Source of the DNA: an uncultured Chloroflexota bacterium
GTDB taxonomy: Bacteria; Chloroflexota; Chloroflexia; Chloroflexales; Chloroflexaceae
Assembly: GCA_937120965.1 (NCBI GenBank)
Contig: CAKZKA010000267.1
Location: 1,556 to 65,555, forward strand
DNA length: 64,000 bases
Direction: 5' to 3'
The translations under genes and the position numbers were made by a program. Shown here in pieces: positions 528 through 52,896 of this stretch. The notes below the pieces were generated by a model. The model ran no database searches. It was not told the DNA's origin and worked only from the letters and a program-made list of their open reading frames with translations. Every line of letters begins with the position of its first letter. The first letter of the stretch is position 1.

Positions 528-552
528 CGCCGCTTTCCCTGCCCGTAGATAC

Positions 553-659
553 GTATTCACATTTGGGGTAAGGCGTCACCCCGCGTGCGCGGGCGTCCCG
601 CCCGCAATGGCCTGGATGCGGGCAAGATGCCCGCGCCCCCGGGAGAAGTGTGAACACGT
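553..659 (+). repeat. R1 element copy 1 (~105-bp imperfect palindrome with GTRTTCACA ends)
   Basis: GTATTCACATTTGGGGTAAGGCGTCACCCC...GCGGGCGTCCCGCCCGCAATGGCCTGGATGCGGGCAAGATGCCCGC...GAGAAGTGTGAACAC. It contains three short GC hairpins. Confidence 0.75.
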
Positions 660-979
660 ACGCGTGGGGAAACCCGGTTTCCCCATCAGACGCGGGCGCC
701 TTGCGCGAACGATTGTGCCACAGAGCGCCTCCCGGCGCAAGCGTCAGGGGGGTATGGGTTCCCCCTTCTCCTGGGAGCGCAGGCAGGTCGTCCTCAAACG
801 CTGACCGGGGCGGGAACCCTCGCGCCCGGGCTGACGCCGACCCTCCGGCGCTTGAGTGTACCTGGCGCCGATATAATAACGGCGTGTCCGGCACCTCTCA
901 CCCGTGCGAGCGCGCGGCAGAGTCGCCCGCGCCGCCCCTCTCGTGCTCTTCTGAGGATGAGAGGCAGAAGAGGAGACCC

Positions 980-1981: not shown

Positions 1982-2227
1982 TGTGAACATAGCCCGCCCA
2001 CGGGAGGCTTTGGGAGGGCGCAGTCCTCCCAGGAAACAACCCGCGCGCGGGGAGGGTTTGGGAGGGCACAGCTCTCCCAGGAAACAACCCGCCCGCGGGA
2101 GGGTTTGGGAGGGCACAGCCCTCCCAGGAAACAACCCGCCCGCGGGGAGGGTTTGGGAGGGCGCAGCCCTCCCAGGAAACAACCCGCCCGCGGGGAGGGT
2201 TTGGGAGGGCGCAGCCCTCCCGGAAAC
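1979..2227 (+). repeat. Terminal motif TGATGTGAACAT followed by five tandem 47-48-bp G4/hairpin (H) units
   Basis: Units start at 2002, 2050, 2097, 2145 and 2193. Each reads GGGAGGGTTTGGGAGGGC-N4-CCCTCCCAGGAAACAACCCGCCCGCG. Confidence 0.9.
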
Positions 2228-3075: not shown

Positions 3076-5991
3076 ATGACCCTGACCCACGGCTTCGAAT
3101 TGCTGCGCGACGAGTACATCGCCGAGTTGAACACCCGCGCCCGGCTGTACCGTCACGCGAAAACCGGCGCCCAGCTCCTCTCCCTTGAAAATGACGATGA
3201 GAATAAGAGCTTTGGCATCACCTTTCGCACCCCACCCGCCGACAGCACCGGCATCGCCCATATCCTCGAACACTGCGTGCTCTGCGGCTCGCGGAAGTAC
3301 CCGGTCAAAAAACCCTTCTTTGAACTGGTTAAAAGCTCGGTCAAAACCTTCCTCAATGCCATGACCTACCCGGACAAGACCGTCTACCCGGTCGCGTCCA
3401 CCAATACGACCGACTTCTACAATCTGGTTGATGTGTACCTCGACGCGGTATTCTTTCCCCGTCTGACGCCCGAGGTGTTGAAACAGGAGGGTTGGCGGTA
3501 CGAGTTGCCCCGGAAAGACGCGCCGCTGGTCTTTCAAGGGGTGGTGTACAACGAGATGAAGGGCGTCTATTCATCGCCCGATAGCCTGCTCTACCGGTAC
3601 AGCCAGCAAGCCCTCTTCCCCGACACCACCTACGGCGTCTCATCCGGCGGCGATCCGCAGTTCATTCCTGACCTTACCTACGAGCAATTCAAACGCTTCC
3701 ACGAGACTCTCTACCACCCCTCCAACGCGCGCATCTTCTTTTACGGCGATGATGACCCGCAGCGCCGCCTGCAGGTGGTTGAAGCCTACCTGAGCCAGTT
3801 CGAGCCACTGGAGAGCCCCTCGCAGATCGCCCTGCAGCCACGCTTCGCGGCCCCCCGGGTGGTCGAACAGACCTATGCCGCTCCGAGTGAAGAGAGCGGC
3901 AAGAAGGGCATGGTCACCGTAAGCTGGATGCTCGACGCGGAGAGCGATATGACCCGCGTGCTGGCCCTCGATGTGCTGAGTTACATCCTGGTCGGCACCG
4001 CCGCAGCCCCGCTCTACAAGGCGCTGATGGACTCGCGCCTGGGCGAGAGCCTTACCGGCAGCGGGTACAACGACGGTCTGCGTCAGCACACCTTCTCAGT
4101 GGGCCTGAAGGGGATTGACCCCGCCGATGCGCCAAAGGTCGAGGACCTGGTGCTCCACACGCTCGAGCGCCTGGCGAGTGAGGGTATTGACCCGGAGCAG
4201 GTAGCTGCGGCGCTGAACACGGTCGAGTTTGCGCTCCGCGAGAACAACACGGGCGCCTTTCCTCGCGGCCTGAGCCTGATGCTCCGCGCCCTGCACACCT
4301 GGCTCTACGACGGCGACCCTCTTGCGGCGCTGCGCTTCGAGGCGCCCCTGGAGGCGGTCAAAAGCGCCGTGGCCCGAGGCGAGCCGATCTTCGAGCGCCT
4401 GATCCGCGAAACGCTGCTCGACAATCCCCACCGCGTGCGAGTGGTGCTGCGCCCCGACCCCAGCCGGGCCGAGCGCGACGCCGCCGCGGAGCGCGCCCGT
4501 CTCGACGCCGCCCGCGCCGCGATGAGCGAGGCCGATCTCGAACGCCTGGTGGTTGAGACCGCCGAGCTGCGCCGGCTCCAGGAGGAGCCAGACCGCCCCG
4601 AGGACCTGGCCCGCATCCCCACCCTCACCATCGCCGACCTCGACCGCCACGGCAAGACCATTCCCACCAGTGAACTCAATGTGGGCGGCGCGCCGCTGCT
4701 CTTCCACGACCTCTTTACCAATGGCGTGGTGTACCTGGACCTGGCCTTCGACCTGCGAGCGCTGCCGCCCGAGTTGCTGCCCTTCGTGCCCCTCTTTGCC
4801 CGCGCCCTTACCGAAATGGGCACGACCAGGGAGGACTTCGTGCGCCTGGTGCAACGCATCGGCCGCGAGACAGGCGGCATTGGCGCCTCGGCCATCACCG
4901 CCACCCATGTGATCACCGGTGAGCCGGTGGGCCGCCTGCTGGTGCGCGGCAAGAGCACTCTGGCCCGGACTGGCGCCATGCTGGCGATCATCCGCGATAT
5001 CCTGCTCGAAGTGCGCCTGGACGAGCAGGAGCGCTTCCGCCAGATTGTTACTCGCGCCAGGGCCGGGCGCGAGTCATCGCTGGCGCCCAGCGGCAACGCC
5101 TACGCCCGCAAGCGCCTGGCGGCGCGCTTCGACGCTGCCGAGTGGGCCGACGAACAGATGAGCGGTATCAGCGGGCTGTTCTTCGTGCGCGAGCTGGAGC
5201 GCCGCATCGCCAGCGATTGGCCCGGCGTCCTGACCCAGCTCGAGGCGGTGCGCCGCCACCTGGTCAACCGCGCGGCCCTGGTCGCCAATGTGACGGTCGA
5301 TCGGCAGACCTTCAACACCATCGAGCCGGCCCTCGAGGACTTTATTGCCGAGCTGCCCGCCGCGCCCTACACGCCGGCCCCCTGGCGCGTGGCCGAGGCC
5401 GGACCACACGAGGGCCTGATTATCCCCGCTCAGGTCAACTACGTCGCCAAGGGCGCCAACCTGAAGGCCCTGGGCATCACCGTCGGCGGGGCGGCCAGCG
5501 CCATAACGCGCTTCCTCTATAACGCGTACCTGCTCGAAAAGATCCGCGTCCAGGGCGGCGCCTATGGCGCCGGCAGCAGTTATGACCGCAGCACCGGTAT
5601 CTTCGCCTGGACGTCGTACCGCGATCCCCACCTGCTGCGCACGCTGGACGTGTACGATGGCACAGCAGCCTTCCTGCGGAGCGTGGAACTGGATCGCCTG
5701 GCGGTCGAACGCAGCATCATCGGCACCATCGGCGACCTGGACGCCTACCAGTTGCCCGACGCGCGGGGCTACACCGCCATGGTGCGCCACCTGACCGGGG
5801 TCAGCGATGCCTACCGTCAGAGCATCCGCGAGCAGATCCTCGACGCGACCGCCGCCGACTTCCGCGCCTTCGCCGACGCGGCCGAGGCTGCCAGCGCCCA
5901 CGGCGCCATCGCCGTCCTGGGTTCGGCGGAGGCGATCGAGGCCGCCAACCGCGAGCGCCCGGGGTTGCTGCAACCGGTGCAGGTGTTGTAG
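3076..5991 (+). CDS. M16C-family zinc metalloprotease (PreP/presequence-protease-like insulinase)
   Basis: Product of 971 aa starting MTLTHGFELLRDEYIAELNT. Inverted zinc motif HILEH. Length and N-terminal similarity are typical of peptidase M16C. Confidence 0.8.
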   Translation: MTLTHGFELLRDEYIAELNTRARLYRHAKTGAQLLSLENDDENKSFGITFRTPPADSTGIAHILEHCVLCGSRKYPVKKPFFELVKSSVKTFLNAMTYPDKTVYPVASTNTTDFYNLVDVYLDAVFFPRLTPEVLKQEGWRYELPRKDAPLVFQGVVYNEMKGVYSSPDSLLYRYSQQALFPDTTYGVSSGGDPQFIPDLTYEQFKRFHETLYHPSNARIFFYGDDDPQRRLQVVEAYLSQFEPLESPSQIALQPRFAAPRVVEQTYAAPSEESGKKGMVTVSWMLDAESDMTRVLALDVLSYILVGTAAAPLYKALMDSRLGESLTGSGYNDGLRQHTFSVGLKGIDPADAPKVEDLVLHTLERLASEGIDPEQVAAALNTVEFALRENNTGAFPRGLSLMLRALHTWLYDGDPLAALRFEAPLEAVKSAVARGEPIFERLIRETLLDNPHRVRVVLRPDPSRAERDAAAERARLDAARAAMSEADLERLVVETAELRRLQEEPDRPEDLARIPTLTIADLDRHGKTIPTSELNVGGAPLLFHDLFTNGVVYLDLAFDLRALPPELLPFVPLFARALTEMGTTREDFVRLVQRIGRETGGIGASAITATHVITGEPVGRLLVRGKSTLARTGAMLAIIRDILLEVRLDEQERFRQIVTRARAGRESSLAPSGNAYARKRLAARFDAAEWADEQMSGISGLFFVRELERRIASDWPGVLTQLEAVRRHLVNRAALVANVTVDRQTFNTIEPALEDFIAELPAAPYTPAPWRVAEAGPHEGLIIPAQVNYVAKGANLKALGITVGGAASAITRFLYNAYLLEKIRVQGGAYGAGSSYDRSTGIFAWTSYRDPHLLRTLDVYDGTAAFLRSVELDRLAVERSIIGTIGDLDAYQLPDARGYTAMVRHLTGVSDAYRQSIREQILDATAADFRAFADAAEAASAHGAIAVLGSAEAIEAANRERPGLLQPVQVL

Positions 5992-6054
5992 GGGCGGAAC
6001 ATCCGTGGCCAGGGGCGCGAGGAACCTCGGGCGCCCCACTACACCCTTGGGGGT

Positions 6055-6300
6055 GGGGGAACCCGGTTCCCCCATGTCCCAACCGCTATTGGGAGCGGCT
6101 GGCGCCCCAGCCTGCAGGGGCGCGGTTCGACAAGCTCACCACAGGTGGGGAAACCCGGTTTCCCCGATGTTCACCTCAGCCGTCCATGCGGCTGCGCCGC
6201 ACAACGACAAAATGGGTTTTTCTTGGGAGGGCGTAGAGGCGCGGCGCTGCCGCGCCTCTACGCCCAAACCCTCCCGCGCGGCCTATTTTCACATCAGGAG
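6055..6300 (-). repeat. Composite repeat block
   Basis: Palindrome variant at 6055-6073. CCAACCGCT..AGCGGCTGG hairpin. GCGGTTCGACAAGCTCACCACAGGT. Perfect palindrome at 6148-6166. ATGTTCACCTCAG. TCCATGCGGCTGCGCCGCACAACG. A 17-bp-stem hairpin at 6229-6265. ATTTTCACATCAG. Confidence 0.85.
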
Positions 6301-6309
6301 TAGCGCGCC

Positions 6310-7326
6310 TTGGCCCGTCAACGCGACCATTCTCACCCAACCGACATATTCGGGCTGCCTGAAGGACTGCTCGCCGCGATTGTCGCCGCGCTGCTCCTCA
6401 TCATAGTCTTCGCGCTGCACGTTTTTGCCACCCCTATGCCGCCTCCCGAGCGCTGGGCCAGCCTGACTGCCTTCAGCTTCCTGGCCCTGGGGTTAACCCT
6501 GCCCGGCTGCGCCGCGCTGTACGACGGGCTGGGCCGCGTGGTGCGTCGCGACCGGCGTGCCCTGGCCGCGCTGCTGGCAGTGGCGCCAACCCTCTACGCA
6601 GCCTACGCGTTTGCGGTGCGCGAATTGAATGGCATGGGGTTGCTCTCGGCGATCCTCTTCACCGTCGTGCCGGCCCTGGCCTCTGGCCTGGCCCGCGACC
6701 GTCGTCAACCCACCCTTGCCGACGCTGTGGCTCTGGCCTACCTCGGCCTGGCCCTGGGCCTGCGCCTGGTTCCGCACCTCACCCTGCCGCAACAGGGCGG
6801 GCTGGTGGGCTTCTTCGGGTTGACCATGGCACCGCTGCTCCTGATCCTCTTCGCGGCGCGGGGCTGGCCTGGCCCGGGCTTCACCTGGCACCTCAGCGGG
6901 CGCGAATTGCGTGATGCTCTGGTCGCGGGCCTGCTGGCAGCCCTTGTGGCCCTCGGCGCCAGCGCCCTTATGAACGCGACCCGGCCTGCGGGTGCCCTGC
7001 CCTCGGCCGGTACATTCATTATGTCAATCATTACCAGCTACTTCTTCGTGGCCTTGCCCGCCGAGGTGCTGTTGCGCGGCGGCGTGCAGAACGGTCTGGC
7101 TCGGGCCCTGGCCGGGCGCGCCGGCCCCCGCGCGCCCTGGATAGCCCTCGCCGCGACGACGGCTCTTTCGGCGCTCGCCGGCATCGCGCCGGGCGGATGG
7201 CCGCTGGGACCGGTCGCCGGAGGCATCGCCGGCCTTGCCGCCGGCTGGAGCTACCTGCGCACCGGCAAGCTCACCGCCGCAGCCCTCGCCAGCGGGCTGG
7301 TGGTGCTGGGGACGAGTCTGCTGTGA
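6310..7326 (+). CDS. Polytopic membrane protein, weak CPBP (CAAX protease)-like C-terminal region
   Basis: Multiple hydrophobic helices. PAEVLLRGG resembles the EExxxR motif, but the His motifs are not evident. The start is uncertain (TTG at 6310 or ATG at 6436). The TGA stop lies inside the repeat motif TGTGAACA. Confidence 0.45.
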   Translation: MARQRDHSHPTDIFGLPEGLLAAIVAALLLIIVFALHVFATPMPPPERWASLTAFSFLALGLTLPGCAALYDGLGRVVRRDRRALAALLAVAPTLYAAYAFAVRELNGMGLLSAILFTVVPALASGLARDRRQPTLADAVALAYLGLALGLRLVPHLTLPQQGGLVGFFGLTMAPLLLILFAARGWPGPGFTWHLSGRELRDALVAGLLAALVALGASALMNATRPAGALPSAGTFIMSIITSYFFVALPAEVLLRGGVQNGLARALAGRAGPRAPWIALAATTALSALAGIAPGGWPLGPVAGGIAGLAAGWSYLRTGKLTAAALASGLVVLGTSLL

Positions 7327-7394: not shown

Positions 7395-7496
7395 TACCAA
7401 TTTCACTTGAACTCTCCGCAAGCAGCGTTGCGTCAAAGCGCACCTGGACGCCTTGCGCGACAATCTGCAATCCAAAATCTACAATCTGAAATGGTA
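7395..7496 (-). mobile_element. 102-bp MITE, subfamily B, flanked by a TGA/TGA duplication
   Basis: Ends TACCAATT...AAATGGTA. TSD TGA at 7392-7394 and 7497-7499. It is the reverse complement of the 17184 copy. It sits 17 nt upstream of the MFS start codon. Confidence 0.8.
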
Positions 7497-7513
7497 TGAG
7501 AAGGAGAACCTGC

Positions 7514-8863
7514 ATGACCGCCCCGACCGCGGCCGCGCCACCGATTGATGATCGCCGCGAACTCTTTGGCTGGTATTTCTACGACTGGGCCAACTCGGCC
7601 TTTTCAACCACCGTTGTCACCGTCTTTCTCGGGCCGTTTCTCACCTCCATCACCGAGGCCGCCGCCGACGAGCGCGGTCTGGTCTACCCCCTCGGCATCC
7701 CCGTCGCTGCTGGCGCGTTCTTCCCCTACATGGTCTCGCTCTCGGTCCTGCTCCAGGTCTTCTTTCTGCCAATCCTGGGCGCCATCGCCGACTATTCTCA
7801 CGCCAAGAAGGGCATGCTCGCGACCTTCGCCTACATCGGGGCAGTTGCGACATTGTTGATGTACTTCCTGGACGGCAACCGCTACTTCCTCGGCGGGCTG
7901 CTGTTCCTTATCGCCAATCTCTCCTTCGGCGCGTCCATCGTTTTTTACAACGCCTTCCTGCCCGAAATCTCCAGCCCCGACCGGCGCGACGCGGTCTCGT
8001 CGCGCGGCTGGGCCATGGGCTACCTGGGCGGCGGCCTGCTCTTGCTTGCCAATCTGATCCTGTTCAGCAACCGTGAGGCCCTGGGCCTGCCGACCAACCT
8101 GGCCGTGCGTATCAGTCTGACCTCGGCAGGGCTGTGGTGGGCGATCTTTACCATCATTCCTCTGCTCACCCTGCGTCGCCGGGAGCCATTGAAGCGTCTT
8201 CCGCCGGGCGAGCATTACCTGACCGTCGGCTTCAAACAACTGGCGCACACCTTCAGCCAGATGCGCCACTACCCGCAGACACTGTTGTTCCTGGGGGCCT
8301 ACCTGCTCTACAATGACGGCATCCAGGCTGTCATCGCCCTGGCCTCACAGTTCGGAGCGCAGGAACTGGGTCTGGATCAGGGCATTCTCATCCAGGCGAT
8401 CTTGATGGTGCAGTTCGTGGCCTTCTTCGGAGCCCTGGCCTTTGGCTGGGTGGCACAGCGCATCGGCTCGAAGCGCGCCATTTTTCTGAGCCTGGTCATC
8501 TGGGGCGGGGCGGTGGTGTACGGCTACTTTATGCCGGCAGGCGTGCCCGCGCAATTCTTCCTGCTAGCCGGGGTGATCGCCGTGGTGCTGGGCGGCAGCC
8601 AGGCCATCAGCCGCTCGGTCTTCTCACTGATGATCCCGAAGGGCCAGGAAGCCGAGTACTTTGGCATCTACGAGGTAAGCGAGCGAGGGACGAGCTGGCT
8701 GGCGCCCTTTCTCTTCGGGCTGGCCTACCAGTTCACCAGCAGCTACCGCATCGCGATCATCTCGCTGATCATTTTCTTTGTGGCCGGATTCGCCCTGCTG
8801 CTCTTTGTGGATGTGCGGCGGGCCGCCGAGGCGGCGGGCAATGTGGCCCCGGCGAACGCATAG
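7514..8863 (+). CDS. MFS transporter, UMF1/Atg22-like family
   Basis: ATG at 7514 lies 7 nt after AAGGAGA. ELFGWYFYDWANSAFSTTVVTVFLGPFL is the characteristic N-terminus of this family. About 12 TM segments. Confidence 0.75.
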   Translation: MTAPTAAAPPIDDRRELFGWYFYDWANSAFSTTVVTVFLGPFLTSITEAAADERGLVYPLGIPVAAGAFFPYMVSLSVLLQVFFLPILGAIADYSHAKKGMLATFAYIGAVATLLMYFLDGNRYFLGGLLFLIANLSFGASIVFYNAFLPEISSPDRRDAVSSRGWAMGYLGGGLLLLANLILFSNREALGLPTNLAVRISLTSAGLWWAIFTIIPLLTLRRREPLKRLPPGEHYLTVGFKQLAHTFSQMRHYPQTLLFLGAYLLYNDGIQAVIALASQFGAQELGLDQGILIQAILMVQFVAFFGALAFGWVAQRIGSKRAIFLSLVIWGGAVVYGYFMPAGVPAQFFLLAGVIAVVLGGSQAISRSVFSLMIPKGQEAEYFGIYEVSERGTSWLAPFLFGLAYQFTSSYRIAIISLIIFFVAGFALLLFVDVRRAAEAAGNVAPANA

Positions 8864-12388: not shown

Positions 12389-12503
12389 ACTGCTCCTCCT
12401 GGGGAACGCGCCGGATCTGGCGTGGTATTCGCCTGAGCGGCGCGGCCCGTAGGTCTCGGCAGGCATGTTTCAGCCTGATCGGTCGTGGAGGTGTAGCGCG
12501 CAG

Positions 12504-12610
12504 GTGTTCACTCCTGGGGTAAGGCGTCACCCCGGGTGCGCGGGCGTCCCGCCCGCAATGGCCTGGATGCGGGTAAGATGCCCGCGTACCCCGGAGAAGT
12601 GTGAACACGT
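12504..12610 (+). repeat. R1 element copy 2
   Basis: Nearly identical to copy 1 over about 100 nt, with the same GTGTTCAC...GTGTGAACAC ends. Confidence 0.75.
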
Positions 12611-12829
12611 GCGTGCAGCGCTGCGGTGCCCCCCGCCCCCCACTCCAGTGAACCCGTTCCCATCCCGGGCATTCTACTCTCTTCGGTCTCCGCAGGCAGT
12701 AGCCCTTCGGTCCTGTTCGCAGGGGGTAGCCAGCCTGCTGCCCCCTGCCCATCGAGGCGCCAGGCGCCCCCATCACCGGTTGGGGGATGCGGCTGCTGGA
12801 TTGGCGCGCCTCCCCGGAAGAGTCAAGCA

Positions 12830-13185
12830 CACCATTCGCATTCGTTTATTCGTTTCCCATTCGTTGGCGTATTTCGTTTCCCCTGAGGTGAAAATATGGG
12901 GAAATCGGGTTTCCCCACCCCCCTCCCTGCGGGGAGGCGCCCGGTTCCCTCCCCCAGCGGGGGAGGGCCAGGGAGGGGGCGGCCCTCCCGAAGACGCCCT
13001 ATGTTCATCGCGGCGTTGTGCGCCATGCGTATGACCGTCTAAGATGAAAACGGGTTTTTCTCAGGAGGGCGTAGAGGCGCGGCGCCGCCGCGCCTCTACG
13101 CCCAAACCCTCCCGCGCGCGGGCTATGTTCACGCTGGACGCCCATGCGCGGGGCGCACAACGCCAGCATGCAACCGTGGGAGGGC
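12830..13185 (+). repeat. Composite repeat block
   Basis: ACGAAT-rich module at 12830-12867. CTGAGGTGAAAAT. Palindrome at 12898-12916. About 110-bp module GGCGCCCGGTTCCCTCCCCCAGCGGGGGAGGGCCAGGGAGGGGGCGGCCCTCCC...CGGCGTTGTGCGCC. A 17-bp-stem hairpin at 13067-13103. ATGTTCAC. Confidence 0.85.
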
Positions 13186-13188
13186 TAA

Positions 13189-13290
13189 TACCAATTACCG
13201 TTGATGATACCGCATTGCTTGAAGCGGTTTTAGGCGTTATGCTGCCCAGCGTGGCAATCCACAATCCAAAATCCAAAATCTAAAATGGTA
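13189..13290 (-). mobile_element. 102-bp MITE, subfamily A, flanked by a TAA/TAA duplication
   Basis: Ends TACCAATT...AAAATGGTA. TSD TAA at 13186-13188 and 13291-13293. It is inserted in the loop of a GGGAGGGGG/GCCCTCCC repeat hairpin. Confidence 0.8.
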
Positions 13291-17183: not shown

Positions 17184-17285
17184 TACCATTTCAGATTGTA
17201 GATTTTGGATTGCAGATTGTCGCGCAAGGCGTCCAGGTACGCTTTGACGCAACGCTGCTTGCGGAGTGTTCAAGTGAAATTGGTA
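17184..17285 (+). mobile_element. 102-bp MITE, subfamily B, flanked by a TGA/TGA duplication
   Basis: Ends TACCATTT...AAATTGGTA. TSD TGA at 17181-17183 and 17286-17288. Confidence 0.8.
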
Positions 17286-35131: not shown

Positions 35132-35625
35132 GGTGAACATAGCCCGCCCGCGGGAGGGTTTGGGAGGGCAAAGCCCTCCCAGGAAACAACCCGCCAGCGG
35201 GGAGGGTTTGGGAGGGCGAAGCCCTTCAACGGGTTTCACCTGCTCCGGGATAGGCTTCCTGGGACGCAGAGGGGAGATGGGCCAACGAATGGGAAACGAA
35301 TAAACGAATGCGAGCGGCGTGTCTGACTCTGAGGTGAACATAGCCCACCCACGGGAGGGTTTGGGAGGGCGAATTCCTCCCAGGAACCAACCCGCCAGCG
35401 GGGAAGGTTTGGGAGGGCGAATTCCTCCCAGGAACCAACCCGCCAGCGGGGAAGGTTTGGGAGGGCGAAGCCCTCCCAAGAACAATACTATGTTCATTCT
35501 GGCGTTGTGCGGCACAGCCGCATGGACGGATGATGTGAACATACGGGGAAACCGGGTTTCCCCACCTGCGGTGAGCCTGTCGAACCGCACCCCTGCCAGT
35601 GGGGAGGGTTTGCGAGGGCGCAGTC
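35128..35625 (+). repeat. About 500 bp of repeats filling the nuoL-nuoM spacer
   Basis: Two CTGAGGTGAACATAGCCC heads (35128, 35329). Five H units, two with a GAATTC loop. ACGAAT-rich module at 35282-35313. GGCGTTGTGCGGCACAGCCGCATGG module. Perfect palindrome at 35545-35563. CTGCGGTGAGCCTGTCGAACCGC module. One degenerate H unit. Confidence 0.9.
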
Positions 35626-37371: not shown

Positions 37372-37482
37372 TACCATTGCGACCATCTACGATTTTAGAT
37401 TTTGGATTGTGGATTGCCACGCTGGGCAGCGCAACGCCTGAAACCGCTTCAAGCAATGCGGTATCATCAACGGTAATTGATA
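37372..37482 (+). mobile_element. Degenerate MITE copy, subfamily A (111 bp), between nuoM and nuoN
   Basis: TACCATTGCG...GATTTTAGATTTTGGATTGTGGATTGCCACGCTGGGCAGC...GGTAATTGATA. The ends are mutated and no TSD is recognisable. It ends 20 nt before the nuoN ATG. Confidence 0.65.
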
Positions 37483-44964: not shown

Positions 44965-45461
44965 CCGAGGTAAAAATAGGGGAAACCGGGTTTCCCCAGG
45001 CCCCTGCCTGGAGGGGCGCCAGCCGCTCCCACCAGCGGTTGGGAAATGGGGAAACCGGGTTTCCCCACCTGTGGTGAGCTTGCCGAACCACGCCCCTCCC
45101 TGCGGGGAGGCGCCCGGTTCCCTCCCCCAGCGGGGGAGGGCCAGGGAGGGGGCGACCCTCCCAGAGATACCCCTGGTTTCATCGCGGCGTTGTGCGCTCC
45201 GCGCATGGGCGTCTAAGTGAAAATAGGTGGGGAAACCGGGTTTCCCCAGGCCCCTGCCCGGGGGCGGATTTGCACGCTTCTCGCCACGGGGGCAGGGGCA
45301 ACCCCCTCGCCCCACGCCCCTCCTGGCAGGAAGGGTCCGAGCGGGTGTAGCGTGCTCAGGCCCTCCCGTTCAAGAACGCACGGGATGCCGAGGTGCGGAG
45401 ATGAAGGCCATGGTGGGATGCGCAACAGGGGCGTGGTACAGCCGGGATTCCCGTATGTTCA
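44965..45461 (+). repeat. Composite repeat block between the CHAD and CYTH genes
   Basis: Perfect palindromes at 44979-44997, 45048-45066 and 45229-45247. AGCCGCTCCCACCAGCGGTTGG hairpin. GGTGAGCTTGCCGAACC module. About 110-bp GGGGGAGGG module. Degenerate palindrome plus TATGTTCAG at the CYTH stop. Confidence 0.85.
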
Positions 45462-46065: not shown

Positions 46066-46692
46066 TTGTTCGCGGAAACCGGGGTTTCCCGTACTACTCC
46101 CTGCCCGGCGGGAGGGTTGCGAGCGTTCTGTCCTCTTCCAGCCCTCTGCTGGGGGAATGCGCCTGACTCCCTCTCCAGGCGGGGGAGGGTCCGGGAAGGC
46201 GAAGCCCTCCCAGGAGAATCGCTCTTCAGTCATCCATGCGGCTGCGCCGCACAACGACAAGATGAACATGGATTTTTCCTGGGAGGGCGCAGCCCTCCCA
46301 AACCCTCCCCGCTGGCGGGTTGGTTCCTGGGAGGGCTGCGCCCTCTCAAGCCCTCCCGCGGGCAGGCTATTTTCACCTCAGGCACCATTCGCGGGGCGCA
46401 CAACGCCGCGATGACCATAGGGCGTCTTCGGAAGGGCCGCCCCCTCCCTGGCCCTCCCCCGCTGGGGGAGGGAACCGGGCGCCTCCCCGCAGGGAGGGGA
46501 TTGGGGAAACCTGGGTTCCCCGTATGTTCACCTCAGGCGGTCATGCGCATGGCGCACAACGCCGCGATGACCATGGGGCGTCTTTGGGAGGGCCGCCCCC
46601 TCCCTGGCCCTCCCCCGCTAGGGGAGGGAACCGGCCTCCTCCCCGCAGGCAGGGGAATGGGGAAACCCGGTTTCCCCGTATTTTCACCTCAG
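46066..46692 (-). repeat. Composite repeat block including two tandem ~156-bp units
   Basis: Degenerate palindrome at 46072-46090 and two reverse-oriented H units at 46270-46360. Tandem units at 46381-46535 and 46536-46692 each consist of the GGGGGAGGG module, a palindrome (46503-46521 and 46659-46677) and (T)ATGTTCACCTCAG. Confidence 0.85.
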
Positions 46693-46944: not shown

Positions 46945-48663
46945 TCAGCGAGCAGGCGAAGCAGCCCCGGCGAAGGCGCGAAACTGCCCGATCACCCCGT
47001 CCGGATCAGACGCCGCGCGAGTAGTCGCGGTGACGCTGAAGTAGACATCCACCCGCGCGCCACTGGCTTTGCCACGGAAGTGAACTCCGTAGACACCGGG
47101 CAGTGAGTCGGGCTGGATCTGGAGGTCGAGGGGCGGGCTGTAGCCAATGCGCCCCTGGGCATCGGCAACGGGGTTATCGGGGAACAGCACGTAGGTCCCC
47201 GACGGGTCGGTGATCCAGAACTCAAGAGGCTCGCCAGGACGCAGACCTTCGCCGCGGATCTGCACGACACCGCCTGGTCGGGCCTCGGCTGGCGTGGCGC
47301 TGCCGCGATTATTGCCGGGCAGCGGCGTCCCCGGTCCCGCCACAAAATCGCGGGTCAGGCTGAAGGCCGCGGCCACGGTCACGCCACTGTTCCGGCCGCG
47401 GGCCACCGCCGAGTAGATGCCCTCAGGCAGCCCGCTGGTGGCCACGCTAACCTGGGCCGTGGTCCCATCACGGCGCACCCGGGCGGGATCGATGGGCGCG
47501 GAGCGACCGGTCGGCCCGGTGATCCAGGCGCTCACCTCTTCGCCGGACTGGAAGCCGCGAGCCAGGAGGACAAAGGTTGCGCCGGGGGGCGCGGCGACCG
47601 GAATGATGAACCCATCGCCCTGCCGGCCGAGCAAGTCGTGTGCAACGCGGCCCAGTCGGCCGGGATCGCCCGGGGGCGTGACGCGGGTAACGCGGAAGTA
47701 GCCAACCGCCTCGCGCCCGCTACTGACGCCGCGGGCATTGAACGACCAGAGACCTTCGAGCGCATTCTGGGGGGCGGTAAAATTGATATTCTCGCCTTCG
47801 ATTGTACCCCGGTTGTCGGCAGTGGCCTGGAAGCCAGTGCCAAAGGTCGCCTGGTCGGGTGCAGTGACCCAGATCCCCACGCGCTCGCCGGCGAGGAAGC
47901 CGCTGGCGACGAACAGGAAGGTCGTGCCGGGCGGCCCGATCTCCGGGGTTACCCGGGCATTAATGCTGGGCGGGAGCGGCGGGAGCGGGGTCGGCATGGG
48001 CGCCGGAGGTGTGGCAGTGGTACCCGGGGGCGGCGCGGGTGCCTGGCGCTCCGGGGGCGCCAACCGGCGCCCCAGGGTACTGATCAATACCCGGCGTCCC
48101 GGAGGAAACTCAGGCCAGTACTCGAAGCGCGCCTTTTCGAAGTACTGCACGGTGTGCCAGCGACCGCTTTCGAGCTGCTCCTGGATCTCATTGCTGATGG
48201 GGAAGCCGAAAATACGCTCGGCGCCGCGGGTCTCCCAGATCTCCTTGAAGCCGTACTGGATGATGGTCTGAGTCTGAGGAATGTAGCGGCGGTCAGCGGT
48301 ATTCTGGATAGGGGGCGATTTGGGGAAGATCCGCCCCTGCGTGATTTCCAGACCCAGGTTCCCCAGTTCCACCACGGGGGTGCTACCGCCCTGGGCCAGT
48401 TCAAAACGCGCCCGCTCGAACCACTGCGTGATACGACCATTGGGACCGGTAAACTCCTCGGTGATGGGAAAGCCGAAGATCTCAACCCCGCCATTGGCTT
48501 CCCAGAAAACGCGAAAGGCCCCGCGCAGGGTATGCTGGGTCTCGGGGAAGTAGCGCACATCGGATTGGGCCCGGAGCGCGGGTAGGCTCCCCAGCAGCAG
48601 GGCGAGCGCCAGCACCATCCCCGCCAGGAGCGTAGCCAAACGGCGTAGCGGTTGTGCAGCCAT
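46945..48663 (-). CDS. Secreted repeat protein (2 N-terminal FERARFE-type modules, Pro-rich linker, 3 Ig-like ~95-aa repeats)
   Basis: Signal-like MAAQPLRRLATLLAGMVLALALLLGSLPALRAQ. Modules are FPETQHTLRGAF..FGFPITEE..WFERARFEL and IPQTQ..FGFPISNE..YFEKARFEYWP. Three internal repeats have the pattern G..F....GF..GE.V..W.T.P. Confidence 0.6.
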   Translation of the reverse strand: MAAQPLRRLATLLAGMVLALALLLGSLPALRAQSDVRYFPETQHTLRGAFRVFWEANGGVEIFGFPITEEFTGPNGRITQWFERARFELAQGGSTPVVELGNLGLEITQGRIFPKSPPIQNTADRRYIPQTQTIIQYGFKEIWETRGAERIFGFPISNEIQEQLESGRWHTVQYFEKARFEYWPEFPPGRRVLISTLGRRLAPPERQAPAPPPGTTATPPAPMPTPLPPLPPSINARVTPEIGPPGTTFLFVASGFLAGERVGIWVTAPDQATFGTGFQATADNRGTIEGENINFTAPQNALEGLWSFNARGVSSGREAVGYFRVTRVTPPGDPGRLGRVAHDLLGRQGDGFIIPVAAPPGATFVLLARGFQSGEEVSAWITGPTGRSAPIDPARVRRDGTTAQVSVATSGLPEGIYSAVARGRNSGVTVAAAFSLTRDFVAGPGTPLPGNNRGSATPAEARPGGVVQIRGEGLRPGEPLEFWITDPSGTYVLFPDNPVADAQGRIGYSPPLDLQIQPDSLPGVYGVHFRGKASGARVDVYFSVTATTRAASDPDGVIGQFRAFAGAASPAR

Positions 48664-48874
48664 GCGGTCCTCCTTCTATCAGGCGCGGTTCCAGAGACGG
48701 GGGTCAACCGTGGCGGGGGTAGCCCGCAGGCGCGCCCGGGTATCCGCAAGGTGATCCCGTGAAGACCAGCGAGGTGAACCACAGTGTCGCGTGTCACTTT
48801 ACGGGTGATCCGCGATCATGGGCTTTATCATAGTCTTTTTTCATGCGATCTGTCAAGCGTGTATGTAGAGGTGG

Positions 48875-49089
48875 GTGTTCACATTTGGGGTAATACCATT
48901 TTGGATTTTAGATTTTGGATTGTGGATTGCCACGCTGGGCAGCACAACGCCTGAAATCGCTTCAGGCAATGCGGCATCATCAACGGTAATTGGTATAAGG
49001 CGTCAACCCGGGTGCGCGGGCGTCCCGCCTGCAATGGCCTGGAATGCGGGCAAGATGCCCGCGCTCCCAGGAGAAGTGTGAATACGTAC
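48875..49089 (+). repeat. R1 element copy 3, interrupted by a MITE
   Basis: Left part is 48875-48893 and right part 48996-49089. They are collinear with copies 1 and 2 once the 102-bp insertion is removed. Confidence 0.8.
48894..48995 (+). mobile_element. 102-bp MITE, subfamily A, flanked by TAA/TAA, nested inside the R1 element
   Basis: TSD TAA at 48891-48893 and 48996-48998. Removing the element plus one TAA restores GGGGTAAGGCGTCA, the sequence seen in uninterrupted R1 copies at 566-579 and 12517-12530. Confidence 0.85.
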
Positions 49090-49330: not shown

Positions 49331-50824
49331 ATGCTTATTCGTCTGGCAATCGCCTGGATGCTGGGGATCGTCATTGCCGAGCAGGCCCGCCCCCCAACGG
49401 GCTGGCTGTGGGCTGCGGCGGGGGTGGGGCTGGTCATGGCGCTGGCCGTCCGGGGTCAGCAGCGAGGCACACTACGCCTGGCGGCCCTCGCGCTGCTGTG
49501 CGCGGCTCTGGGCGGGCTACGCTACATGGGCACGCTGCCGGCCCTGGGGCCGCAGAGCGTGAGCAGCCTGAGCGGGCGGGGCGAGGTCGTGCTCACGGGC
49601 AGCGTGGCCGGCGAGCCACGCCGCAGTGAGGAGCAGCAGCGCGTGGTGCTCCAGGTCGAGACGGCCACGGTAGAGGGAGCGACCGCGGCCTACGAGGGGC
49701 TGGTGCTGGTGGTATTACCGCCCTACCCTGCCTATGCCTACGGCGATCGGCTCGAGGTTCGGGGCGCGTTGCGCCGTCCGCGGGGCGCAGAGCGGCCCGG
49801 CGAGTTCGATTACCGGGCCTACCTGGCCCATCGCGGCATCTTTGTGATGATGACCAAACCCGAAGAGGCGCGCCGGCTGACGGGCCAGGACGGTCTGGCG
49901 CCCTTGCGGGCCGTGCTTGCCTTTCGCGCTCATTGCCAGGCGGTGCTGCTGCGCACCTTGCCCGAACCCCAGGCCGCCCTGGCAATCGGGGTCGTTCTTG
50001 GCATTCAGTCAAGCATCCCCGACGAAGTGTACCGAACCTTTTCGATCACCGGTACGAGCCATATCCTGGTAGTATCGGGATGGAACTTCACGATTGTGGC
50101 GGGGATGCTGGGAGCGCTGGCGGCACGCCTGCGCCTGGGGCGAGGGGCAACCCTGGCGCTGGCGCTGGCGGTGATGTGGGTCTATGCCGTGTTTACCGGC
50201 GCCTCGGCGGCGGTGCTACGGGCGGCAGCCATGGCCAGCCTGGCCGCCGTGGCCCGCGCCACCGACCGCAGCAGCGAGCCGTGGCATCTGCTCCTCGGCG
50301 CGTGCTGGCTGATCACTCTGGCAGACCCACACACGCTCTGGGACCCGGGGTTCCAGCTCTCGGCGCTGGCAACGGCCAGCCTCTTCGCCTACGCCACGCC
50401 GGTGGCGGCGTGGTTTAACCGGCGGCCCTTCAACTGGCCGATGATGGCTCCGGTCACAGAGGCACTGGTGGCAACATTCGCTGCCCAGGCGCTCACCCTG
50501 CCGCTGATCTTATACGCCTTTGGCAACCTCTCGCTGGTGGCGCCACTGGCGAATATCGTGATCGTGCCGGTGGTGCCATTCGCTATGGCTCTGGGCGCAC
50601 TGGCGCTGGTAGGCGGCCTGATCTGGCTCCCGTTGGGGCAGTGGCTGGCCCTGGGGGCATGGCTGCCCTTCACCTGGATCGCCGAGGGGGCGCGCCTTCT
50701 GGCCATGCCACGCTGGGCCAGCGCGCAGGTGCCACCATTCCCGCTGTGGCTGCTCCTGGGTTGCTATGCCGCCATCGGGCTGCACTGGTGGAGCAGGCTA
50801 CGCACCGCGGGAGAGAGCGCCTGA
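49331..50824 (+). CDS. comEC: ComEC/Rec2-family DNA internalisation channel protein (no beta-lactamase domain)
   Basis: ATG at 49331 after GGAGGGAG. Polytopic membrane protein. FSITGTSHILVVSGWNFTIV resembles the competence-domain motif. The stop TGA is embedded in CTGAGGTGAACAT. Confidence 0.7.
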   Translation: MLIRLAIAWMLGIVIAEQARPPTGWLWAAAGVGLVMALAVRGQQRGTLRLAALALLCAALGGLRYMGTLPALGPQSVSSLSGRGEVVLTGSVAGEPRRSEEQQRVVLQVETATVEGATAAYEGLVLVVLPPYPAYAYGDRLEVRGALRRPRGAERPGEFDYRAYLAHRGIFVMMTKPEEARRLTGQDGLAPLRAVLAFRAHCQAVLLRTLPEPQAALAIGVVLGIQSSIPDEVYRTFSITGTSHILVVSGWNFTIVAGMLGALAARLRLGRGATLALALAVMWVYAVFTGASAAVLRAAAMASLAAVARATDRSSEPWHLLLGACWLITLADPHTLWDPGFQLSALATASLFAYATPVAAWFNRRPFNWPMMAPVTEALVATFAAQALTLPLILYAFGNLSLVAPLANIVIVPVVPFAMALGALALVGGLIWLPLGQWLALGAWLPFTWIAEGARLLAMPRWASAQVPPFPLWLLLGCYAAIGLHWWSRLRTAGESA

Positions 50825-51165
50825 GGTGAACATACGGGGAAACCAGGTTTCCCCATCCCCCTCCCCGAGGGGAGGGTTTGGGAGGGCTTCGCCCTCCCGA
50901 GAATAATTATTTTCATTCCGGCGTTGTGCGGCGCAGCCGCATGTGAGGTGAACATACGGGGAAACCGGGTTTCCCCATCCCCCTCCCTGCGGGGAGGGTT
51001 TGGGAGGGCTTCGCCCTCCCGAGAATAATTATTTTCATTCCGGCGTTGTGCGGCGCAGCCGCATGGATGACTGAGGTGAACATAGGGGGAAACCGGGTTT
51101 CCCCATACCCCCGCCCACGGGAACGTGAACATATGGGGCAACCGGGTTTCCCCTCGCCCCCTCCC
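50821..51165 (+). repeat. Tandem composite units (periods 122 and 128 bp) downstream of comEC
   Basis: GGTGAACAT heads at 50825, 50947, 51075 and 51125. Palindromes at 50836-50854, 50958-50976, 51086-51104 and 51135-51153. The first two units are near-identical through GGGAGGGCTTCGCCCTCCCGAGAATAATTATTTTCATTCCGGCGTTGTGCGGCGCAGCCGCATG. Confidence 0.9.
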
Positions 51166-52794: not shown

Positions 52795-52896
52795 TACCAT
52801 TTTAGATTTTAGATTTTGGATTGTGGATTGCCACGCTGGGCAGCACAACGCTTAAAACCGCTTCAAGCAATGCGGCATTATCAACGGTAATTGGTG
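52795..52896 (+). mobile_element. 102-bp MITE, subfamily A, flanked by TAA/TAA
   Basis: TSD TAA at 52792-52794 and 52897-52899. The last TIR base is mutated (AATTGGTG). It lies between the convergent nth and GPH transporter genes. Confidence 0.8.

Follow-up and report, generated by a model that had tools for sequence, protein, structure and literature searches.

A MITE nested in a second MITE upstream of comEC in an uncultured Chloroflexales bacterium, and the probable later movement of the composite

Nested miniature transposons are a known kind of event. In plants, MITE-into-MITE insertions were reportedly used by Jiang and Wessler, in Plant Cell in 2001, to order transposition events; in such plant nests one MITE lies within another with its duplication intact, the outer element is restored upon removal of the inner one, and the composites have then propagated. 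Small size, absence of an ORF, short inverted ends, a high number of near-identical copies and a 3-bp T-N-A duplication (mostly TTA or TAA) are encountered in the world of the Tourist-like MITEs, PIF-Harbinger and the bacterial IS5 elements of the IS1031, IS427 and ISL2 groups; 3-nt insertion sites were described for the IS1031 group of IS5 (PMC2516522) and a 3-bp duplication for PIF/Harbinger (PMC2213677). REP/BIME palindromes are targeted by IS1397, ISPpu9/10, ISPa11 and ISRm22 (PMC1525189), which repeatedly use one position in a repeated intergenic palindrome. The IS66 family (single-ORF, ISH10/ISBst12-like) and the MITEs derived from it display 8-bp duplications and ends that start with GTA, which in the elements of related Chloroflexales follow the pattern GTAnnnGTTCA.

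The locus described here lies in a window of 64,000 nucleotides, which is the whole stretch of DNA that was analysed, from an uncultured hot-spring Chloroflexales bacterium with close relatives among Chloroflexaceae/Oscillochloridaceae MAGs. In one copy of a 113-bp repeat, R1, is inserted a 102-bp element, M, an arrangement hereafter written R1::M. This nest shares all the above features of the plant nests and differs from them in being bacterial, in apparently involving two transposase superfamilies (3-bp TNA versus 8-bp duplications) and in displaying fresh 8-bp duplications at two loci. M has the features listed above for the Tourist, PIF-Harbinger and IS5 systems, whereas its kinship to them is read from the duplication only, its TACCAWTT ends and GATTTTG repeats were unmatched in our searches and it is found in an uncultured bacterium of the Chloroflexales. 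Like the REP-targeting IS it has repeatedly used one position of an intergenic palindrome (at 13 R1 loci); unlike them it is non-autonomous, is not specific for R1 and lies mostly elsewhere, a short motif that is rare in this 65% G+C genome being sufficient. R1 in turn resembles the IS66 family in its 8-bp duplications and GTAnnnGTTCA ends, but its exact ends were found on no transposase-bearing element, and it is an almost perfect long hairpin without similarity to the interior of an IS. The kind of event is known and its members here are new; we found no paper on MITEs in Chloroflexales, and M and R1 appear to be two uncatalogued MITE families in these uncultured relatives of filamentous phototrophs. 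It is very likely, in our opinion, that M is a non-autonomous MITE nested in the TAA of the R1 MITE and that the resulting 219-bp composite was later remobilised via the R1 ends.

The three R1 copies of the window and the features of the nested site are the following (related contigs and loci from other assemblies are given as L numbers).

549-661, plus strand: R1 copy 1, 113 bp, uninterrupted ("empty"), with its loop TAA at 569-571
12500-12612, plus strand: R1 copy 2, 113 bp, uninterrupted, with its loop TAA at 12520-12522 and the 9-mers GTGTAGCGC and GTGCAGCGC at its flanks
48871-49089, plus strand: R1 copy 3 with nested M, a 219-bp composite with inverted ends at 48871-48883 (GTGGGTGTTCACA) and 49077-49089 (TGTGAATACGTAC)
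48894-48995, plus strand: M in R1 copy 3, a 102-bp MITE with ends TACCATTT...AATTGGTA
48891-48893, no strand: left TAA target-site duplication of M, by direct reading of the sequence
48996-48998, no strand: right TAA target-site duplication of M, by direct reading of the sequence
48863-48870, no strand: left 8-bp target-site duplication of the R1 composite, ATGTAGAG in the window and ATGTGGAG in L005
49090-49097, no strand: right 8-bp target-site duplication of the R1 composite, ATGTGGAG

Read directly, both empty copies run continuously as ...TGGGGTAAGGCGTCACCCC... across the TAA. R1 copy 3 reads ...TTTGGGGTAA up to the TAA at 48891-48893, is followed by M (TACCATTTTGG...AATTGGTA) and resumes with the TAA at 48996-48998 and GGCGTCAACCC..., so that the sequence to the right of M, from the second TAA onward, is TAAGGCGTCAACCC.... 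When positions 48894-48998, that is M plus one TAA, are removed, R1 copy 3 displays exactly the ...GGGGTAAGGCGTCA... junction of copies 1 and 2. The original prediction had proposed a MITE inserted in another repeat at a TAA that became duplicated, with R1 restored exactly by deletion of the element and one TAA. The restoration was reproduced both by reading and by aligning the three copies, pairwise alignment places the junctions at a single duplicated TAA as expected, and the insertion itself is backed by many M copies with TNA duplications and by at least 13 R1 copies filled at the same TAA. Its interval, 48875-49089, ends correctly on the right and begins 4 bases inside the true start, 48871, on the left. 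The comparison of filled and empty sites that it drew holds between paralogous R1 copies and is not one between alleles of a single locus; in the alignment, copy 3 without M has about 91% identity to copy 1.

Because the same filled arrangement is carried by three other independent assemblies, those containing L005/L121 (ENA), L122 (JGI) and L123 (Logan), it is not an assembly artefact, and the nesting of M in R1 copy 3 is real. L005 is a contig 98.5% identical to the window, in which the 8-bp duplication, imperfect around R1 copy 3 of the window (ATGTAGAG and ATGTGGAG), is perfect, with ATGTGGAG on both sides. Neither repeat is expected by chance: a 36-mer from M had 3 matches in the window versus 0 expected (100 shuffles), and a 34-mer from R1 had 2 versus 0 expected.

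M was analyzed in the window and in at least 118 metagenome loci fetched by a 26-mer from its core, a sample that over-represents filled sites since the loci were retrieved by matches to M. At least 114 end-to-end copies were found there at 81 or more distinct sites, and at least 98 full-length copies by BLAST. Lengths range from 95 to 139 bp, with a mode of 102 bp. The 8-bp inverted ends, TACCAWTT...AAWTGGTA, are conserved across the 114 or more copies, the 5' subterminal region carries, at this end only, three to five heptamer-like repeats (GATTTTG/GATTTTA/GATTGTG), and an internal 7-bp hairpin, GCCTGAA-ATCGC-TTCAGGC, is present. Of the 81 distinct sites listed, 70 have a perfect 3-bp TNA duplication around M, the triplets being TTA (32), TAA (23), TGA (8) and TCA (7). 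In 44 of 71 target sites a G stands at position -3 and in 43 of 71 a C at position +3 after the triplet, which gives the target motif GnnTNAnnC; the form that M prefers, and that is rare in the window, is GnnTWAnnC. Copies identical to the one at 48.9 kb in the window occupy at least 32 distinct sites and at least 10 more differ from it by one base; dozens of identical copies indicate a very recent burst. Among species-representative genomes, which do not include the window's own species at the exact-match level, the 26-mer from the M core had one exact match, in an Oscillochloridaceae MAG (L001), with a TTA duplication.

M thus displays the usual traits of a MITE: it is small and non-coding, its inverted ends, although short (8 bp), are present, its duplication has a fixed length, and its many dispersed copies of high identity come with filled and empty sites. 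No ORF, Rfam match or terminator was detected in it, its fold is not notable (z = -0.86) and the minus strand inside it holds only a weak 9/12 promoter-like match; a role as functional RNA, promoter or terminator was rejected for want of an Rfam match, a significant fold or a terminator. For all M copies, no orthologous empty site with at least 94% identity across the junction was found in this M-biased sample. Subfamily 2 included, the M family has six members in the window, of which five lie outside R1 copy 3.

13189-13290, minus strand: M copy, 7 mismatches to the 48.9-kb copy, TTA duplication, nested in a different GC-rich repeat
52795-52896, plus strand: M copy, 6 mismatches, TAA duplication, between an HhH-GPD gene and an MFS transporter gene
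37372-37482, plus strand: M copy with rearranged 5' end and without a matching duplication (GAA / TCA)
17184-17285, plus strand: M subfamily 2, same ends and heptamer repeats with a different core, TGA duplication
7395-7496, minus strand: M subfamily 2, second copy, TCA duplication

Several arrangements of M in or beside other M-family sequences were seen among the related loci: a palindromic dimer of two M 5' ends (L041, 2103-2211), two M copies back to back with one triplet in common (L048, 5228-5434), and M in or beside subfamily-2 copies (L013, 1485-1586, and L047, 2920-3126).

The 3-bp duplication at T-N-A / T-W-A is that of the IS5 superfamily, and a 3-bp TNA duplication points to an IS5/PIF-Harbinger-type transposase for M. 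The search for an autonomous partner considered any two M-type ends separated by 300-4000 bp and bordered by the same TNA, first with strict and then with relaxed ends. All such pairs were separate MITEs placed around ordinary genes, solo M ends were truncations, and an all-against-all comparison of ORFs, meant to reveal proteins that recur in different contexts, gave only paralogues and a spurious antisense ORF. The window, 134 related loci (1.1 Mb) and viral contigs yielded no autonomous element with M ends, and no DDE_Tnp_1/DDE_Tnp_4-type gene bounded by M-type ends was found in the window or the related loci; because of the former, it is the duplication that assigns M to the IS5 type. On this basis, an origin of M from the IS5 / PIF-Harbinger superfamily is somewhat favoured. 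We found no match to the ends or the GATTTTG-type subterminal repeats of M, so that its transposase may also represent an undescribed lineage.

Matches in a plasmid collection were dismissed, as they corresponded to cyanobacterial tandem GATTTTG heptamer arrays without M ends, a low-complexity resemblance and not the same element. Such arrays were seen in Nostocales plasmids of Dolichospermum and Sphaerospermopsis (L119, 2500-2536; L120, 2504-2600) and also in Anabaena and Nostoc; their GATTTTG/GATTTTA units are 94% identical to the M subterminal repeats over about 35 bp, in the absence of M ends or core, and the likeness is probably coincidental.

The outer element, R1, is a 113-bp, almost perfect long hairpin (single-strand fold of copy 1, z = -3.4) with 13-bp inverted ends, GTACGTGTTCACA...TGTGAACACGTAC. 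Perfect 8/8 duplications border 11 of 32 distinct R1 loci and 5 more match at 7/8, while some loci have 9 bp or a one-base offset; a single 8/8 flank match is expected by chance once in 65,536. R1 itself is a MITE by its 13-bp inverted ends and 8-bp duplications, hence R1::M is a MITE within a MITE. Its 8-bp duplication and its GTA-starting inverted ends are like those of IS66-derived MITEs and IS66-family elements, and a triple nest seen in L036 (4779-6393) brings such an element next to the two families: there, an R1-like repeat is cut at a TTA by M, and M is cut after 52 bp by an IS66-family IS. The latter (4889-6393, 1,505 bp) encodes a 474-aa transposase (Pfam DDE_Tnp_IS66, E = 2e-34) between ends GTATCCGTTCAGG; its flanks do not match, which indicates that a deletion or rearrangement followed. 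Relatives of this IS (L135, L137) have ends GTAACCGTTCAGG and 8-9-bp duplications. R1 ends and IS66-family ends have the pattern GTAnnnGTTCA in common, with a best match of 9 of 13 bases. No IS66-family element with the exact ends of R1 was found at the four transposase loci examined (from more than 7,000 homologues), where the ends were related but different. The GTAnnnGTTCA pattern together with the 8-bp duplication makes an IS66-family parent likely, and the presumed mover of R1 is a single-ORF transposase of that family. For both M and R1, we infer the transposase families.

M occupies one and the same TAA in at least 13 distinct R1 loci with different outer flanks (7 loci have one orientation of M and 6 the opposite one). 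In L028, M lies at a neighbouring TTA of R1. With the exception of one pair of composites discussed below, the nearest relative of every filled R1 is an empty R1, so these fillings are independent. Such repeated use of one loop TAA raises the possibility that M recognises the hairpin loops of palindromic repeats in the manner of the documented REP-specific IS (PMC1525189), with the R1 loop as a structure-specific target. Of 106 M copies, 39 are located within GC-rich repeats of intergenic DNA other than R1 that have paralogous empty copies, one of the 39 being the copy at 13189-13290 in a GGGAGGGGG-TTA-GCCCTCCC hairpin, and this would agree with such recognition. However, M targets do not exceed control TNA sites in complementarity centred on the TNA (mean of 3.14 pairs of 12 for 71 reconstructed targets versus 3.25 for 20,000 control sites), G(-3) and C(+3) are the only positions that stand out, and more than half of the M copies lie in unique sequence. 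Moreover, the loop TAA of R1 matches the rare motif GnnTWAnnC: among the 347 TWA sites of the window (65% G+C) only 32 have this form and 3 of those are R1 loops, a share of about 9% that is close to the share of M insertions found in R1, about 14%. Motif frequency accounts for the share of R1 among M insertions and recognition of structure is not needed; as most M copies lie outside R1 and excess centred complementarity is absent, structure-specific targeting was rejected and we consider it very unlikely.

The repeat that hosts the M copy at 13189-13290 (minus strand) provides another filled site, ...GGGAGGGGGTTA followed by M and TTAGCCCTCCC...; its uninterrupted paralogues are found in the window at 12923-13039 and 45096-45213, and also in L038, L080 and L100 (88-93% identical across the junction).

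The pair of composites set apart above consists of the window locus and a second one. L005 is the orthologue of the window locus, and its 219-bp composite matches that of L014/L133 at 218 of 219 positions; the latter has different flanks, with an amidohydrolase gene on one side and an SH3-domain gene on the other. Each has its own perfect 8-bp duplication, ATGTGGAG in L005 versus TTATGTGA in L014. R1 copy 3 of the window belongs to a subfamily of 114 bp with an extra A and the variants TCAACCC and GAATAC, and the closest uninterrupted R1 is only 92-93% identical to the composite pair. The occurrence of a 218/219 identical composite at a second locus with its own duplication indicates that R1 probably kept moving with M as a passenger. 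The simplest reading, drawn from comparison of two loci in different metagenome assemblies, is that the R1 transposase probably moved the composite as a unit after the entry of M; the copy upstream of comEC may be donor or recipient. It follows from the second composite that M may have reached the window locus as a passenger of R1 and not by inserting there. The original prediction held that transposition of M followed the spread of R1. This is right insofar as R1 copies are old and diverged and M copies near-identical, but R1 was not dead, as the L014 composite indicates.

Two other histories could leave the same pair. In one, an identical master M was inserted twice, independently, in the same TAA and orientation of members of one rare R1 subfamily, and the composite never transposed. 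M does enter the same R1 TAA repeatedly (13 loci, both orientations), identical M copies at 32 or more sites deprive M identity of diagnostic value, and a sample biased to filled sites could miss empty members of the subfamily. The R1 parts nevertheless match each other at 113 of 114 positions and none of about 20 empty R1 copies exceeds 92-93% identity to them, the variants (extra A, TCAACCC, GAATAC and CAGA) occur in these two filled loci only, orientation and position are the same at both, and relatives lacking R1 at both loci indicate that both R1 arrivals are recent. We therefore regard two independent insertions as unlikely. In the other, ectopic gene conversion copied the M-bearing allele onto an R1 already present at the second locus. 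R1 copies do offer about 113 bp of dispersed homology, the local 8-bp duplications would be left untouched by such an event, and an apparent exchange between L061 and L106 has its breakpoint exactly at an M copy. Against this, shared variants are found as far out as position 12 counted from the left and position 8 counted from the right, so that the tract would have covered nearly the whole element and stopped at its ends; two separate recent R1 insertions would be needed in addition to the conversion; and homogenisation of this kind is absent from other filled R1 copies. Gene conversion seems highly improbable on these grounds, and we infer that the composite moved by transposition.

Neither an R1-only nor an empty allele of the comEC or L014 locus was recovered in the same lineage: the alleles available at these loci are either filled (L121-123, L133) or belong to relatives without R1 (L018, L124-132, L134). 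The search for filled and empty alleles among R1 copies suggested by the original prediction yielded at least 13 filled loci and, at the comEC site, no R1-only allele. At the site of L014/L133, an 81%-identical relative (L134, 1880-1935) lacks R1 and carries a truncated M-family 5' end beside a TGA.

Under the preferred reading, transposition of R1 with M on board, M integrates through a 3-bp staggered cut at TNA, with a preference for GnnTWAnnC, and the triplet becomes duplicated. A DDE transposase of the IS5 / PIF-Harbinger superfamily (IS1031/IS427/ISL2-like), its gene lying at another place in the genome, presumably acts on M in trans. M entered the TAA of R1, a strongly self-pairing 113-bp MITE for which a single-ORF IS66-family transposase is the candidate mover. 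After this entry, the R1 ends would have served to bring the 219-bp composite to one or more other loci. A bolder version, in which the two unrelated MITE families constitute an active hitch-hiking system in hot-spring Chloroflexales, with M landing safely in the R1 loop, R1 (IS66-type) carrying it as the 219-bp composite and the M transposase perhaps of an undescribed lineage, appears doubtful to us.

The composite upstream of comEC has the following neighbours.

49331-50824, plus strand: comEC (Competence and DUF4131 domains), to the right of the insertion, with the start taken from the 99%-identical called protein P0001 (497 aa)
46945-48663, minus strand: 572-aa gene, divergent, without Pfam match, to the left of the insertion
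48827-48856, minus strand: promoter-like site TTGACA-18-TATGAT (11/12) of the leftward 572-aa gene, kept in relatives without R1 and M

The composite is located within the 667-bp divergent region that separates the 572-aa gene from comEC and starts 14 bp upstream of the conserved -35 box; M and R1 elements thus adjoin promoters. In four related lineages (L018, L124/125, L128-131 and L132) the orthologous site upstream of comEC has neither R1 nor M, and the corresponding point falls just after the conserved ...GATCTGTCAAGC promoter block. Identity is 83-87% for their ComEC proteins and, in the case of L018, about 89% at the DNA level. In a Chloroflexaceae MAG (GCA_052746755.1; L126, 1-100) the same intergenic position upstream of comEC carries, at the contig end, tandem CCTGACATCCTGCCCC-like units, a different repeat.

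R1::M provides a clean bacterial example of a MITE in a MITE, with both duplications intact and evidence of renewed movement of the composite, and changes nothing of what is known on how such elements work. M and R1 are useful as strain-level markers in mat metagenomes and are likely to produce contig breaks and chimeric joins, for instance between L061 and L106. Up to the R1 loop TAA these two contigs (7500-7700 and 5412-5520, respectively) share 1.4 kb at 99.8% identity, and beyond it they show no resemblance: R1 is uninterrupted in L106, and L061 holds M with unequal triplets (TTA/TAA) and then unrelated sequence, the left flank being different. The pair would be explained either by recombination between two M copies or by a chimera that arose at the repeat during metagenome assembly.

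GC-rich hairpin repeats other than R1 are abundant in the window (1993-2227, 35353-35483, 46368-46692 and 50822-51116, with dispersed copies). They include 48-bp tandem arrays of CCCGCnnGCGGG and GGGAGGGCnnnGCCCTCCC units, tandem units of 122 and 156 bp, and dozens of GGGGAAACCGGGTTTCCCC hairpins, often bounded by GTGAACATA; the overall pattern resembles REP/BIME mosaics.
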